From: an uncultured Bacillales bacterium | Lineage (GTDB): Bacteria; Bacillota_I; Bacilli_A; RFN20; CAG-826 | NCBI GenBank assembly: GCA_946409515.1 | Contig: CAMJWS010000001.1 | Coordinates: 318,824 to 382,823 of the forward strand | Direction: 5' to 3' | DNA length: 64,000 nucleotides | Part shown: one piece after another, positions 22,531-27,092 of the stretch | Layout: each line of letters opens with the position of its first letter | Numbering within the stretch: the stretch's first letter is position 1 | Program-made: the position numbers and the translations under genes | The notes under the pieces: model-generated | The model's input: the letters and a program-made list of their open reading frames with translations, nothing else | Told to the model about the DNA's origin: nothing | Databases searched by the model: none

Positions 22531-23358
22531 CTATATATTATCTATTCGTTTATTCTTATCGAATATCTCTGGATATGGATTCTCTTTAGGATCAACATCA
22601 GAGAGCAAACATACTGCATGGTGCACTCTTTTTGTTAAGTCTATTCTTTGCTCACCTTCACTTAAGGCTTCATCTTTATATAATGGTTCCCCTATTTTTA
22701 AAGTAATCGCGACTTCTTGACCAAAGATATGTCTTCTAATCCAAGAAGGCTTTCTAAAAGAGAAACCAATCGGTAAAACTGGTTTATTAAGGCGACACGC
22801 TAATGAAAAAGCCCCTGTATGGAATGGTCTTATATATGGATAGCATTCCCACATACTACCTTCAGCGTATACTTGTAACCATCCGCCTTCTTTTAAATAT
22901 TGTTCTATTGCTTTATTAGAGGCGACTTTACCACCTAAATTATCATCAGGAATTGGTACACCACCCACTAATCTTGCTAAAGCACCATTTTCTCCCCTAA
23001 TATTAGCGGCCCAGACTAAGACTCTTGTTTCTCTTGGTCTAAGAGCTTTCATAATAGCGATATAGTCCCACATATGGACATGGTTAGAGATGGTAATAGC
23101 CCCATTCCTTAGTTCATCTTTATATTTTTTAAGGTTTTTACGTCCCTTAATTCTTAGTCCCATATAGATTGGACAAAGAGGAAAAACGATTAAGTAAAGT
23201 AGTACACGTACCCACCATCTTTTAAATCTAAAACCTTTAGAGTTATCAATATAGGGGTAATGTTCATCAAAAACTAAGCCATTATTCTTTTTAACAACTA
23301 AATAATGCTGATCAGTATATTCTGGATAGTTATATTTTGTGGAATGTGGATTATACAT
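22531..23358 (-). CDS. Lysophospholipid acyltransferase-family protein (PlsC-like)
   Basis: NHVHMWD (HX4D) acyltransferase motif plus a downstream EGS motif. Confidence 0.65.
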   Translation of the reverse strand: MYNPHSTKYNYPEYTDQHYLVVKKNNGLVFDEHYPYIDNSKGFRFKRWWVRVLLYLIVFPLCPIYMGLRIKGRKNLKKYKDELRNGAITISNHVHMWDYIAIMKALRPRETRVLVWAANIRGENGALARLVGGVPIPDDNLGGKVASNKAIEQYLKEGGWLQVYAEGSMWECYPYIRPFHTGAFSLACRLNKPVLPIGFSFRKPSWIRRHIFGQEVAITLKIGEPLYKDEALSEGEQRIDLTKRVHHAVCLLSDVDPKENPYPEIFDKNKRIDNI

Positions 23359-23380
23359 TAACTAGATTTTAACATAAAAA

Positions 23381-23414
23381 GAAAGAAGCGGACAATTTCC
23401 GCTTCCTTCTTTTG
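23381..23414. terminator. Hairpin terminator (usable on either strand) at the 5'/3' edge of the GC-rich RNA-like block
   Basis: GAAGCGGACAATTTCCGCTTC hairpin followed by CTTCTTTTG on plus, or by UUUCUUUUUAUG on minus. Confidence 0.5.
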
Positions 23415-23545
23415 AACCGTTGTACCTATTACTAGATACCCAAGTTAAGCTCTTTTGACTGGTGGTGCTTCTTGTTAAAATGCGTTTTGAACTGAGTAGC
23501 GCATTAATGGCCAGCTTCTCTAAGATATTCTCTTTAGAGCTTTCA

Positions 23546-23700
23546 TCCTCTTCGTCATGTCCGGTGCCGGGTTTATTCTGCCAAGCTTTAACGCAGATGC
23601 CGGTGACTATTGCTAGTCAGGTGGGATCGTACCGATAACCACTATTTCTAATGGTTCTTTGCTAGTGCAACCAGTTAACGACGGTTCTTTAATCCTTCGA
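23546..23700. repeat. Repeat module 3 of the GC-rich RNA-like block
   Basis: Shares the CCTCTTYGTCWTGTCCGG leader, the hairpin at 23561-23607 (loop CCAAGCTTTAACG) and the trailing CTTTAATCC motif with modules at 23867 and 24166. Confidence 0.5.
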
Positions 23701-23866
23701 GGTTCCCGAATCAGTTACGGGAAGTGGTTGACTGATCTAGTCTTAAGTTCTTTAGGCCTTTTCTTTGTAAGATTTCCATCTGGGTTCTCTTACTATCATC
23801 TCACGTTAGGTTGAGTAATGAGATTTAGGCTTTGCGGTTAGGTTTTCTCTAACTCGCTTTGTTTTT

Positions 23867-24008
23867 CCCTCTTTGTCTTGTGTCCGGCGGTGGTTTTACG
23901 CTGTTAAACTCTAACTCAGCGACCACTGTAGCAGTGAGGTTTGCCGTTTGAATTTCCCGAAGGATTTCCAGCCTTTGCGATCATTGACTGGGAACTTTAA
24001 TCCCAGAG
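23867..24008. repeat. Repeat module 2 of the GC-rich RNA-like block
   Basis: Hairpin at 23884-23928: stem CGCUG/CAGCG plus GGUGG/CCACU, loop UUAAACUCUAACU. Followed by CTTTAATCC at 23996. Confidence 0.5.
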
Positions 24009-24165
24009 CCTTACTATCAACGTCGTTTTAGTGGTGATCGTCTTACTTTTAAGGCTAAGTTTTCGCCCATTCGCTATCTGTGCCATTGCTGACCAGTTAG
24101 TTTATTTCAGGTTTTGAGTTGCTTTAGCCTGAATGTGGGGTGTTGATGGGTAATTGACCTTCATC

Positions 24166-24310
24166 ATCCTCTTTGATCTTGTCGGGCGGTGGGTTTATGC
24201 TGTCAAACTCTAATTCAGCATCCACTGTAGCAGGGAGGATTTGCCCTTGATTGATTACGAGAACCAATCTGCCAGTACAATCATTGATCCAGACCTTTTC
24301 TTTAATCCTG
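24166..24310. repeat. Repeat module 1 of the GC-rich RNA-like block
   Basis: Hairpin at 24183-24227: stem UGCUG/CAGCA (compensatory relative to module 2), loop UCAAACUCUAAUU. Followed by CTTTAATCC at 24298. Confidence 0.5.
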
Positions 24311-24439
24311 GAAACGCTTTAGCAACTTAGATACCTGCGTTGACTGTTTTACCTGGTCTTAAGATATATAAGAATCTATCAATTCTTATTATCTTACTCA
24401 CTCGGTTTCCCGGGTGGGTTATTATAGTATGCACTTATT

Positions 24440-24615
24440 TAATTTTTATTGCAACACTTTTTTTAAAATTTTTTTAATTATTTTTTATGAAAATCATTTT
24501 TTCTTGATTTTATCTAACTTTTTTATTTGAATAAATTTTTAATATTTTTAAATAATTGTTATTTTTATAATCTTTTTTATCTGTTTTTATCAATATTTAT
24601 TTAATTATTTATATT
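24440..24615. promoter_or_regulatory. Extremely AT-rich region (over 85% AT) with T-tracts phased at about 10 bp: intrinsically curved DNA; possible UP-element or promoter region
   Basis: Runs of TTTTT/AAAAA recur at helical-repeat spacing. A TATAAT hexamer on the minus strand at 24421-24426 faces the GC-rich block. Confidence 0.3.
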
Positions 24616-24619
24616 TTTA

Positions 24620-24652
24620 TATGAGCGAGTGTGGGCGTGAGTGTGGGCGCGC
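24620..24652. repeat. GC island with direct repeat GAGTGTGGGCG x2 inside the AT-rich region
   Basis: GAGCGAGTGTGGGCGTGAGTGTGGGCGCGCAC is a conspicuous GC-rich tandem 11-mer flanked by AT-rich DNA. Confidence 0.4.
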
Positions 24653-24671
24653 ACTTTCTTTTTATATATTT

Positions 24672-24708
24672 AGAAAAAAAATGAAAAGGCCACGGATGTA
24701 GCCTTTTC
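24672..24708 (-). terminator. Intrinsic terminator, minus-strand orientation (downstream of the two-component operon)
   Basis: Minus strand: AAGGCUACAUCCGUGGCCUU hairpin followed by UUCAUUUUUUUU. Confidence 0.6.
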
Positions 24709-25099
24709 GAGAGAGAAAGGAAAGCGCTTTTAATTTAATTGCATAGCTTTCAGTGCGCTTGAGACTAAATAGCTATGAATATTTTAAGTGCCGTTAATAG
24801 CCGGTATTTGGTAATCCTGGTTCATTGTTGTCGGAGTCTAAGCCAAATCACCACCAGCAAGGACGCTTAATAATCTTAGTAAGCCTGGATAATCTAGAAA
24901 TAATGCCACCTAAAAGAGTGCGCATATTGATAAGAGTGTTCTTCTCAGTATTCTTAGCAATGTCCCCTCTTTTTAAAGCAATACTATTTCTTCCCCCAGA
25001 AATAGGCAAAAATGGAAATACTAAAAATCCATTTATGTCTTTGCTTACTTAAAGAATATGAAGGCAAACTTAAATGAACTTTAAATTTTTAAATATTTT

Positions 25100-26419
25100 T
25101 TAAAGTATAATCGTGAAAAAAATCTTATTTTCTTTGATGGATACAGATATTTTTCCCTTATGTAGTTCCACTATTTCCTTAGCGATACTTAGACCGATAC
25201 CCGAACCTTCTTTAGTAACAGAGTTTGGACTACGATAGAATCTTTCAAATAATAGGTTTGTGTCAATTTCGTTATCTTCTATATCGTTAGAAAATACAAT
25301 TTCATTCTTGCGATTAGAATTCTTTTTAACTATTAAGTTAACTTCGCCATTATTCTTAGTGTATTTTAAGGCATTATCAAAGAAGATGTAGAACAGCTCA
25401 TTGATGAGATATATATTTCCTCTCATATTAACTCCATCAGTGATATCACTACTAAATATTAATCCCTTGTTTTTAAAAGTTGGAGCAAACGAATCCACAC
25501 TTTCCATAGCAAGCTTGGAAATTGAGAATTCCGTGAATGGATAGTTATTAGCGTTACCTTCATCTAGTCTAGAGAGAGTCACTAATTGTTTTGTCATAGC
25601 GTTTAAACGCATTATTTGATCATGAATAGATTCGGTCCACTCACTTTTACCATTGTCCATTTCCACGAGTTCTAAGTCAGTAGAAATAATAGTTAATGGT
25701 GTCTTTAATTCATGTGATGCATTAGTAATAAATGCCTTTTGTTTTCTATATGATTCTTCACTAGTTCTAAAGACAAGCTTACTAGATAAAATGATTAAAA
25801 CAGCAAGGACGGTATAGCTTATTGCCGCGATTATTAAAGAAGACATAAAGAAGTTATTCCAGGCGTGCGTTCTTTCTGAAGTATCTAAGAAAACAACATA
25901 TGAATTATTTAATTCTCTTTCTTCTAATATTGGTTGATTAGCTTCTGCATCCCAACTCACAAAGGCTTGAACAGTCTCTTCAATATAAGCAACTTTAAAA
26001 CGCAATTTACCTATCACACCATCGGTTTTACCACTTGCCAATATTTCTGTCGCCATTGCTTCACGTGATTCATTATCAATATCACCTTGTGCGATATGGT
26101 CGTAGTCGGACCACGTAACAACACCATCAGTGTCAAAAACCGTGGCAAAGAATTGTTCATTAATGTCTTCTCTTCTTGGATTAAAAAAGCCACCTGGTCC
26201 TGGTTGGACTGGTTCTCCATTTTCATCTGTAGGAAAAACACCATTTGCGAATAAAACATTTTGGTGTGAATACTCGATAACATCGTACAACGTCTGTGCT
26301 GTTTCACCACTGATTTTCAGATGGTTAGAAACATTAATCGCAGCAATAGTTGAGGCCAAAACAAAAAGAATCGACACTAAAGCCGCAAGAATAAAACGTA
26401 ATCTTAGTTTTCTAATCAT
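25100..26419 (-). CDS. Two-component sensor histidine kinase
   Basis: Two TM segments flanking an extracytoplasmic domain, HisKA H-box (NASHELKTPLT) and a HATPase_c C-terminus (GSGIGLSIAKEIVELH). Confidence 0.85.
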   Translation of the reverse strand: MIRKLRLRFILAALVSILFVLASTIAAINVSNHLKISGETAQTLYDVIEYSHQNVLFANGVFPTDENGEPVQPGPGGFFNPRREDINEQFFATVFDTDGVVTWSDYDHIAQGDIDNESREAMATEILASGKTDGVIGKLRFKVAYIEETVQAFVSWDAEANQPILEERELNNSYVVFLDTSERTHAWNNFFMSSLIIAAISYTVLAVLIILSSKLVFRTSEESYRKQKAFITNASHELKTPLTIISTDLELVEMDNGKSEWTESIHDQIMRLNAMTKQLVTLSRLDEGNANNYPFTEFSISKLAMESVDSFAPTFKNKGLIFSSDITDGVNMRGNIYLINELFYIFFDNALKYTKNNGEVNLIVKKNSNRKNEIVFSNDIEDNEIDTNLLFERFYRSPNSVTKEGSGIGLSIAKEIVELHKGKISVSIKENKIFFTIIL

Positions 26420-27092
26420 TCTTATACTCCAAGTAATAGCCTTGGTAACGAATTGACTTAATCTTTACTTTAGAATTAATACTTTCTAATTTCTTTCTTA
26501 GATAGGATATAAATACCCACACATTCTCGCTCGTGCTATAGGATTCAATATCCCAAACGCTTTTACTAATGGTGTCTTGGGATACAACATTACCATTTGC
26601 TTTGATGAGCAAAGTGATAATTTGTAATTCTTTGTTCATAAGAACAACTTTATTCTCACCATTGATTAGGCAGCAGTTTTTATTATCTAAAGTTAAATCA
26701 CCAAACTCGAGTTTGTTTTCTTCTTCATATGATGGTTGACGACGAAGTAATGCTCTAATACGGGCTAATAGTTCTTCCACCACGAATGGTTTTGGTAAAT
26801 AGTCATCGGCGCCTAAATCTAAACCATGGATTTTGTCTTCAGTTGTCGATTTAGCGGTCAACATAATGATTGGTGTGTCGATTTTGTTGTCTCTCACTCT
26901 TTTTAAAACATCTAAGCCATTAATCTTAGGAAGCATAATATCAAGAATGATGATGTCATATTTATATTGACCAATGTATAAAAGAGCTTCTTCACCATCA
27001 AAAGCACTGTCGACAATATAGGAGTTGCGTTTTAAAACAGTGGTTAAAGCCTTATTTAGTTGAACGGAGTCTTCTACTAATAGTAATTTCAT
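26412..27092 (-). CDS. OmpR/PhoB-family response regulator
   Basis: Receiver domain (LLVEDS...DIIILDIMLP...LTAKS) plus a winged-helix C-terminus; 8-nt overlap with the kinase gene. Confidence 0.9.
   Translation of the reverse strand: MKLLLVEDSVQLNKALTTVLKRNSYIVDSAFDGEEALLYIGQYKYDIIILDIMLPKINGLDVLKRVRDNKIDTPIIMLTAKSTTEDKIHGLDLGADDYLPKPFVVEELLARIRALLRRQPSYEEENKLEFGDLTLDNKNCCLINGENKVVLMNKELQIITLLIKANGNVVSQDTISKSVWDIESYSTSENVWVFISYLRKKLESINSKVKIKSIRYQGYYLEYKND

Follow-up and report, generated by a model that had tools for sequence, protein, structure and literature searches.

Among the large structured non-coding RNAs (ncRNAs) of bacteria, OLE binds membrane proteins. Dimers have been described for OLE, and nanocages made of RNA only for ROOL and GOLLD (PMC12286853). 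ROOL, which was first found in cow rumen, averages 581 nt, and the main text of a 2017 survey of 224 candidate structured RNAs names only rRNAs, GOLLD and group II introns as longer and more complex (PMC5737381). The cow-rumen-1 motif (RF02946) comes from the same survey, the main text of which does not discuss it (PMC5737381); Rfam describes the motif as a 61-nt hairpin with an unpaired 3' tail. Here we analysed a 64,000-nt stretch of DNA from an uncultured Bacillales bacterium (contig CAMJWS010000001.1; hereafter the window), in which a preliminary description had pointed to a GC-rich block at 23406-24420 as a candidate structured RNA. We conclude with high confidence that this block belongs to a single large structured ncRNA, which acts in trans and is encoded by a stand-alone gene on the minus strand, and in which cow-rumen-1 is embedded three times.

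What appears to be new is the ~1-kb transcript, its module architecture and its pseudoknots, the hairpin motif being already known. We found no description of this RNA in the literature on ROOL and GOLLD, large bacterial RNAs and structured RNAs of the rumen. Nor was any description of a ~1-kb RNA with this architecture and these pseudoknots found in the literature searched, where the name cow-rumen-1 occurs in no searchable full text, though the supplement of the 2017 survey may mention tandem copies. The RNA shares with ROOL, GOLLD, OLE and raiA a great length, many multistem junctions, covariation-supported pseudoknots, occurrence in Bacillota, a gene that stands alone and is apparently highly expressed, and the lack of an obvious function, and with ROOL also the rumen origin. 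On the other hand, it is longer than ROOL (1.04 kb, or 1.6-1.7 kb in a five-module form, versus an average of 581 nt), and it differs from all four in showing no match to their covariance models at E<=1 and no phage association. We know of no report of internal repeats of one fold in ROOL, GOLLD, OLE or raiA.

Cow-rumen-1 modules and conserved structure

A cmscan search against Rfam 15 over the 64-kb window, with a separate pass at E<=1 over 23200-24800, gave three full-length matches to cow-rumen-1 (model positions 1-61 of 61), all on the minus strand. We call the modules A, B and C in the direction of transcription:

24228-24168 (-), cow-rumen-1 match of module A, 77.7 bits
23929-23868 (-), cow-rumen-1 match of module B, 77.4 bits
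23606-23547 (-), cow-rumen-1 match of module C, 73.2 bits

The gathering score of RF02946 is 53.4 bits, so these full-length matches above threshold mean that the module hairpin itself is not new. The preliminary statement that the block fits no recognisable class thus holds for the block as a whole but not for the hairpin of each module. The matches confirm the three repeat units proposed there (spacings 321 and 300 nt), and an independent repeat search also found a direct-repeat family of three copies spaced by 323 and 299 nt. The 61-nt model spans only about a fifth of each module. Aligned over ~200 nt, the three module cores have a mean column identity of 71%, and thus the modules are alike well beyond the hairpin. 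The string first given as the start of every unit is exact in module C only, modules A and B differing from it by substitution or indel, while the reported CTTTAATCC is found in all three. The conserved 13-nt loop was a misreading on the plus strand; the minus strand has in its place, as in the Rfam model, a 3-bp stem capped by a UAGA-type tetraloop, together with a 3-nt bulge.

The window copies are members of the cow-rumen-1 family, sharing its outer 4-bp and inner 8-bp stems, its conserved 3' tail and the ruminant foregut habitat, and the description of the family is incomplete. Rfam types a 61-nt hairpin with an unpaired tail as 'Gene; sRNA' (small RNA), whereas in the 1.04-kb unit found here the motif recurs three times as an internal sub-domain (five times in some genomes) and has a paired tail. 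Nothing other than cow-rumen-1 reached threshold anywhere in the window. The searches that the preliminary description had proposed for ROOL, GOLLD, OLE, raiA and HEARO gave no match at threshold in the window and none at E<=1 in 23200-24800, and models of RNase P, transfer-messenger RNA (tmRNA), signal recognition particle RNA, 6S RNA, group I and II introns, riboswitches and ribozymes gave no credible match at E<=1 in the same interval. ARAGORN found no tmRNA in the window. Sub-threshold matches to SpF25, sraA, antisense SR1 and manA-II were seen at 23292-23416 (+) with 21-31 bits. We took them for chance matches; all score below their gathering thresholds and coincide with the terminator hairpin and the first part of the neighbouring acyltransferase gene.

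Scanning one genome of each GTDB species for an exact pattern found 23 stretches in 21 metagenome-assembled genomes (MAGs), all from ruminants (cattle, goat, yak, buffalo and water deer) and labelled Bacilli, Bacillales or Erysipelotrichaceae. Most of these MAGs have three motif copies spaced by ~300 and 323 nt as in the window, and by blastn the full 1.1-kb block is colinear in all 21 at 65-98% identity. A metagenome scan added 102 loci, in 101 of which a profile search found the block on rumen contigs, giving ~120 loci in all with the block colinear and conserved. The lone metagenome locus without it (L064) was a chance match, with no Rfam match and unrelated GC-rich sequence. Sixty full-length copies were reduced to 39 non-redundant ones (<95% identity) with a mean identity of 0.68.

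The structure of the RNA was predicted with RNAalifold on the alignment of these 39 sequences (A2), and its pairs were scored against controls in which the 3' partners were slid by 1-3 columns and against 500 shuffles. The consensus comprises 235 pairs in 53 helices across the whole transcript. Of the cells in these pairs, 93.0% are paired (31-42% in the slid controls), 157 pairs are changed on both sides (56-78 in the controls), and the cells changed on both sides number 1,178 (131-216 in the controls); none of the 500 shuffles matched any of these measures. Substitutions therefore keep the pairing, and the compensatory stem differences first noticed among the three modules are real and borne out by the orthologues. 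The cow-rumen-1 hairpins (helices 12-15, 29-31 and 45-46) are 95-100% paired with compensatory changes, for example GUGG/CCAC to GAAG/CUUC.

Coding potential was checked in the window and in 20 homologues. The GC content is 0.43-0.45 over 23450-24350 and 0.22-0.38 in both flanks, and the block has no open reading frame (ORF) of at least 60 aa, its longest frames being 58 and 51 aa, both on the plus strand; both observations were made correctly from the start. In the homologues no reading frame is conserved in the standard code or under any single stop-codon reassignment (four codes), and the longest open frame switches strand and frame from genome to genome. Moreover, their substitutions relative to the window sequence are flat over the three codon phases, with no 3-periodicity. 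No frame being conserved in these 20 homologues, the RNA reading stands against the possibility of a decayed pseudogene. The surrounding genes of the window read normally in code 11. Thus, massive covariation over ~1 kb, together with no conserved ORF and no codon periodicity, bears out the proposed selection on RNA structure.

Each module is composed of a three-way-junction domain, in which a closing helix encloses two hairpins, the second with a UUAAA loop, followed by a variable hairpin and the cow-rumen-1 domain. The parts of the transcript are as follows, paired strands being separated by a slash:

24419 to ~23376 (-), whole transcript with 5' leader, three modules and 3' domain, ~1,043 nt
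24416-24360 (-), 5' leader; hairpin 24416-24410/24405-24399; second hairpin 24396-24392/24364-24360, enclosing 24388-24381/24376-24369
24358-24271 (-), module A junction domain; closing helices 24358-24353/24275-24271 and 24346-24341/24283-24278; hairpins 24340-24337/24317-24314 and 24312-24307/24293-24288, the latter with the UUAAA loop, which is the CTTTAATCC reported earlier
24246-24166 (-), module A pseudoknot domain; X GGGC 24246-24243; Y AUCCUC 24240-24235; mini-hairpin CUG-CUA-CAG after Y, then the cow-rumen-1 hairpin 24228-24168; X' GCCC 24187-24184; junction strand GACAAGAUCAAA; Y' GAGGAU 24171-24166
24133-24106 (-), A-B linker hairpin 24133-24128/24111-24106, loop highly conserved
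24040-23951 (-), module B junction domain and variable hairpin (helices 22-28); 24040-24036/23982-23978; hairpin 24006-24001/23993-23988 with UUAAA loop; variable hairpin 23968-23962/23957-23951
23946-23868 (-), module B pseudoknot domain; X CGGC 23946-23943; Y CCUC 23939-23936; X' GCCG 23888-23885; Y' GAGG 23871-23868
23857-23767 (-), B-C linker with three hairpins, 23857-23851/23839-23834, 23824-23818/23804-23798 and 23793-23788/23772-23767
23747-23637 (-), module C junction domain; long closing helix 23747-23725/23673-23657; hairpins 23724-23719/23707-23702 and 23699-23694/23684-23679; then variable hairpin 23656-23649/23644-23637
23634-23545 (-), module C pseudoknot domain; X CGGU 23634-23631; Y AUCC 23627-23624; extended P5 hairpin 23619-23614/23609-23604; X' ACCG 23565-23562; Y' GGAU 23548-23545
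23539-23415 (-), 3' domain; hairpin 23539-23536/23521-23518; helix 23515-23511/23462-23458, enclosing hairpin 23506-23500/23484-23479; hairpin 23446-23435/23426-23415

Compensatory changes are spread over these parts. They occur in leader helices 2-6 and, with both sides changed in three of five and five of six pairs, in the closing helices of module A (among helices 7-10), which are 98-100% paired. The A-B linker helix 19 is 97% paired with five of its six pairs changed on both sides, and six pairs are so changed in each of the B-C linker helices 34-36. Among the module C junction helices 38-42, helix 42 has all eight pairs changed on both sides. Helices 48-52 of the 3' domain are 87-100% paired with many compensatory pairs.

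The tail of cow-rumen-1, CCGCCGGACAcGAUCGAAGAGG, is left unpaired by the Rfam model. In every module this tail takes part in two helices with sequence lying 5' of the hairpin (X-X' and Y-Y'), both of them absent from that model. In Y-Y', the tail-end GAGGAU complements AUCCUC directly 5' of the hairpin, and in module C this helix (helix 43) shows the pair types AU17/UA17 and UA26/CG13. Two sequences in which the module A tail reads GAGA have UCUC as their own Y, the element of module B being unchanged; since this tail is matched solely by the UCUC of its own module, the Y-Y' pairing takes place within the module. In X-X', RCCN of the tail just ahead of GAC complements NGGY located 3-5 nt upstream of Y, and the differences among the paralogues are matched (A GGGC/GCCC, B CGGC/GCCG, C CGGU/ACCG). 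We anchored this helix on the invariant GG and CC only and scored the flanking pairs over 117 modules. The outer pair is canonical in 109 of the 117 (GC30, CG67, AU10, UA1, GU1), against a mean of 55 and a maximum of 75 in shuffles, and three of the eight exceptions had been mis-anchored by the regular expression. The inner pair is canonical in all 117 (CG50, UA44, UG23). In module B the outer pair is canonical in 39 of 39 with five pair types (CG30, AU6, GU1, UA1, GC1), a result reached by none of 10,000 shuffles.

The order of the elements, X, Y, hairpins, X', junction strand and Y', means that the two helices cross. Every module retains an unpaired junction strand of 11-13 nt that hardly varies, most homologues having GACA-N-GAUCGAA. 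RNAalifold also proposed helices between modules (helix 16, A tail with C; helix 17, A tail with B; helix 32, B tail with C), which had no covariation or many mismatches. They were dropped because the pseudoknot pairings within the modules explain the same invariant sequences better. Flavivirus exoribonuclease-resistant RNAs and tandem glycine riboswitch aptamers look topologically alike, in that a strand of a three-way junction pairs just 5' of the closing helix and the units stand in tandem, but the present modules are far larger and have no known sequence relationship to either.

Transcription unit and strand

The transcript is framed by one promoter and one terminator:

24464-24426 (-), sigma-70-type promoter; A-tract (UP-like) 24464-24458; -35 TTGCAA 24454-24449; 17-nt spacer; -10 CATACT 24431-24426
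23405-23376 (-), intrinsic terminator; stem GAAGCGG/CCGCUUC 23405-23385; U-tract 23384-23376

The promoter is conserved in 39 of 39 homologues (alignment A2 columns 1-55), most of them with -35 TTGACN. The minus-strand TATAAT (24426-24421) first taken for the -10 has to be abandoned; it overlaps CATACT, is not conserved and leaves only 2 nt before the observed 5' ends. A hairpin followed by a T-run, with covarying stems, is found 3' of the block in all 39 homologues as well. No conserved promoter-like or terminator-like element was found between the modules. The two hairpins said to bracket the block, here placed at 23385-23405 and 24683-24708, are both terminator-like, but the first belongs inside the transcript, which therefore extends past the original boundary at 23406 to ~23376. 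A 22%-GC spacer contains, ~200 nt upstream of the RNA promoter, 1.9 copies of a GC-rich 12-nt unit, GAGTGTGGGCGT, at 24627-24649, which also score as a terminator-like hairpin on the plus strand.

Evidence on the transcript came from contig edges. The transcript-like set consists of 29 contigs from 15 datasets with no contig longer than 2.4 kb (datasets Ga0255059-62, Ga0256869-72, Ga0326507-09, Ga0352976/77/79/85, Ga0138317/21 and Ga0180030). Twenty of the 29 begin 0-28 nt inside the predicted +1, the furthest-5' ones (L105 and L035) at window-equivalent positions 24419-24418, 7 nt past the -10, and 25 of the 29 stop within 84 nt before the end of the terminator. In contrast, contigs of the other (DNA) datasets have their edges scattered thousands of bases away on both sides. 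The transcript-like contigs indicate a full-length RNA of ~1.04 kb (1.6-1.7 kb for five-module forms), and the RNA was abundant enough to assemble in many samples. As an approximation to the transcript data asked for in the preliminary description, this leaves the RNA reading unrefuted, and none of the three refuting conditions named there, each examined directly or by approximation, went against it. Of the two options left there, one large RNA or three small ones, a single transcript fits better, because one promoter and one terminator are conserved, none is found internally and contigs span from +1 to the terminator. Two contigs, L054 (Ga0255061_10031794) and L044 (Ga0255060_10129527), carry the RNA fused to an inverted partial copy of itself, seemingly an artefact that arose by fold-back when this highly structured RNA was copied into cDNA or its transcripts were assembled.

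The minus strand is assigned because the Rfam matches, the orientation of promoter and terminator and the contig edges agree, and because G-U cells are in 2.3-fold excess over A-C cells.

Genomic context and history of the modules

In the window, the RNA gene lies between a two-component system upstream and an acyltransferase/ZIP/2-hydroxyacid dehydrogenase group downstream, all on the minus strand:

26412-27092 (-), response regulator
25100-26419 (-), histidine kinase
22531-23358 (-), acyltransferase ORF, first of the downstream group

This arrangement is confined to the clade of the window. In distant homologues the adjoining genes are unrelated to these and often run on the opposite strand, so a conserved class of downstream gene, as expected of a leader, is not seen, acyltransferase or ZIP genes being present only in the window's clade. 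Likewise, the frequent phage or prophage location of ROOL and GOLLD is not found here, since the neighbours are housekeeping chromosomal genes. The hairpin pattern had no match in IMG/VR, and blastn against phage and plasmid records found no relatives. A looser junction-strand pattern gave 59 viral matches, which we regard as chance, as an nhmmer profile of the block recovered none of them at E<=10. Non-conserved neighbours and the lack of phage, plasmid or viral relatives thus point to a trans-acting RNA gene, not to a leader or a mobile element.

A candidate partner gene ('cluster 0'), adjoining the RNA in 36 loci, was rejected as a mixture of unrelated secreted proteins (Cthe_2159+Big_2, Endonuclease I and Peptidase_S41+Big_2 proteins), which had apparently been grouped for the most part through shared Big_2 domains. 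A gene for a secreted protein of the Endonuclease I family starts 73-76 nt past the RNA terminator on the same strand in one sub-lineage (L019, at 1168-2775, and its equivalents in L092, L093 and L115). In the closest relatives of the window (L001, L009, L017, L096 and L101), a ~2.3-kb cassette encoding a VTC-domain protein, a DUF4956 protein and a secreted Cthe_2159+Big_2 protein is located between the histidine kinase and the RNA gene. The window is without it, the sequence flanking the cassette on either side aligning to 24400-24737 and 24965-25150.

In the window and 19 related loci, the acyltransferase ORF mostly starts 11-49 nt past the terminator (at least 454 nt in four). In the window it starts ~18 nt past the U-tract, and no Shine-Dalgarno sequence is visible ahead of it. 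Overlapping the terminator is a promoter-like site (23395-23366, minus strand; -35 TTGTCC, TG-extended -10 TAAAAT) with its predicted start at the acyltransferase ATG, which suggests that the acyltransferase mRNA may be leaderless and transcribed from this site.

The number of modules varies. Some genomes have a five-module form (A-B-A'-B'-C) of 1.6-1.7 kb, and others have two complete genes in tandem, ~30-220 nt apart (one or the other at L011, L027, L029, L048, L052, L057, L071, L077, L079, L103, L106, L117 and L120, and further at L042, L092, L093, L115, L025 and L012+L021). The nearest relative is of the same module class for 112 of 116 pseudoknot domains. Mean identity is 0.76-0.77 within a module class, 0.71 between A and B, and 0.61-0.63 between A or B and C. 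Since nearest relatives are of the same class, the triplication is older than all sampled lineages, each of which has retained every copy; the five-module forms and tandem genes are later additions.

Possible function and alternatives

The invariant, pocket-like junction in each module, the variable number of modules, the strong-looking promoter and the non-conserved neighbours suggest to us a scaffold or sponge acting in trans. The RNA would be multivalent, each module binding one copy of the same partner, be it a protein, a second RNA or a small ligand. Every module would do the same thing, and the number of modules would tune the capacity. By inference only, this is like the CsrB and RsmZ sponges, with their repeated unit carrying an invariant exposed sequence, variable repeat number, trans action and strong promoter, though the present units are ~300-nt pseudoknotted domains and not ~20-nt hairpins with GGA loops. 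The mechanism is tentative, though likelier in our view than the alternatives below. The account as a whole, that of a stand-alone ~1,043-nt structured ncRNA acting as a scaffold or sponge, we slightly favour.

Several points weigh against this account. The idea of a scaffold or sponge is drawn from the architecture, and instead of binding a partner the invariant junction strands might have a purely structural, or a catalytic, role. The short contigs were taken to be metatranscriptome assemblies from their edges and lengths, not from metadata. The energies calculated by RNAalifold are equal for the two strands (-309.2 and -309.5) and so are uninformative for the strand. One contig, L027 (Ga0352976_1016758), has its 3' end exactly at a module tail, ...GAUCGAAGAG (...CCGGACAUGAUCGAAGAG), which could be chance; it is the sole hint that part of the RNA pool may be processed, which would be compatible with the assemblies. 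Finally, in the clade of the window the RNA may have a local effect in cis, given the close acyltransferase gene and two contigs (L028 and L105) that start at the RNA +1 and read through the terminator into it.

The processing hint bears on a different possibility, that the transcript is a precursor cut between the modules into three ~300-nt sRNAs, each with one cow-rumen-1 pseudoknot domain and acting separately, a co-transcribed version of the three tandem sRNA genes first suggested. This would suit the sRNA typing in Rfam, the varying module number (3, 5 and 2x3) and the fact that no well-supported helix links the modules, as well as the end of L027. We consider it unlikely, because internal promoters and terminators are lacking, the linkers are themselves conserved, structured and covarying (helices 19 and 34-36), and ~20 transcript-like contigs span from the +1 region to the terminator region, none of them starting at a module boundary. 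In addition, the identities and order of A, B and C are fixed in all lineages, which is unexpected for interchangeable copies. The same fixed triplet could instead, by analogy, be an RNA-only particle, in which the three linked modules would pack with pseudo-three-fold symmetry and possibly multimerise, as an intramolecular counterpart of the homo-oligomers of OLE, ROOL and GOLLD. The size and ornateness of the RNA are in the class of these RNAs, one fold is common to the three modules, and the nearly invariant unpaired strands could make tertiary or inter-module contacts. However, there is no sequence or covariance-model likeness to OLE, ROOL or GOLLD, no covarying contacts between modules were detected, and the occurrence of three or five modules suits a closed symmetric particle poorly, so that such a particle seems improbable too.

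The read-through contigs and the acyltransferase ORF close 3' of the terminator, without an obvious Shine-Dalgarno sequence, would also be expected of a cis-regulatory leader, for example a triple aptamer, controlling the acyltransferase and ZIP genes via regulated read-through of the terminator. We think this very unlikely, as these features are those of the window's clade, distant homologues having unrelated downstream genes, often on the opposite strand; the strong canonical terminator is present in 39 of 39 copies with no obvious anti-terminator pairing seen, and the promoter-like site at 23395-23366 could itself serve the acyltransferase gene. To our knowledge, ~1 kb is also far above the size of any known leader. 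The variable genomic context and tandem duplications might recall a mobile or satellite DNA element, and a decayed coding gene or one in an alternative code was likewise considered. These readings are essentially refuted: no frame is conserved in any tested code, there is no 3-periodicity and base pairing is kept instead, and there are no terminal repeats, no adjoining recombinase and no phage, plasmid or viral relatives.

A more far-reaching and rather doubtful view is that the RNA represents an undescribed class of giant ncRNA, at 1.04 kb (1.6-1.7 kb in some genomes) longer than GOLLD, in which three to five linked copies of one fold would form a pseudo-symmetric RNA-only machine or would each be an active site for ligand binding or catalysis. 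If so, it would be a natural RNA that evolved by internal multiplication of a domain, as repeat proteins do.

Few bacterial ncRNAs are very large and intricately folded, and those that are have repeatedly been found to do unusual things. The stand-alone RNA described here is apparently well expressed in a widespread, uncultured lineage of the ruminant gut, and the sequence set, boundaries, secondary structure and pseudoknots suffice to start structural work without culture of the host. If confirmed, it would be among the longest bacterial ncRNAs outside rRNA and group II introns. The motif listed as an sRNA in Rfam would then be a fragment of a much bigger molecule, so that both the model of the family and its classification would have to be revised. 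The RNA would also offer a clear example of a molecule that arose when a pseudoknotted domain was triplicated long ago, the number of modules still varying between genomes.

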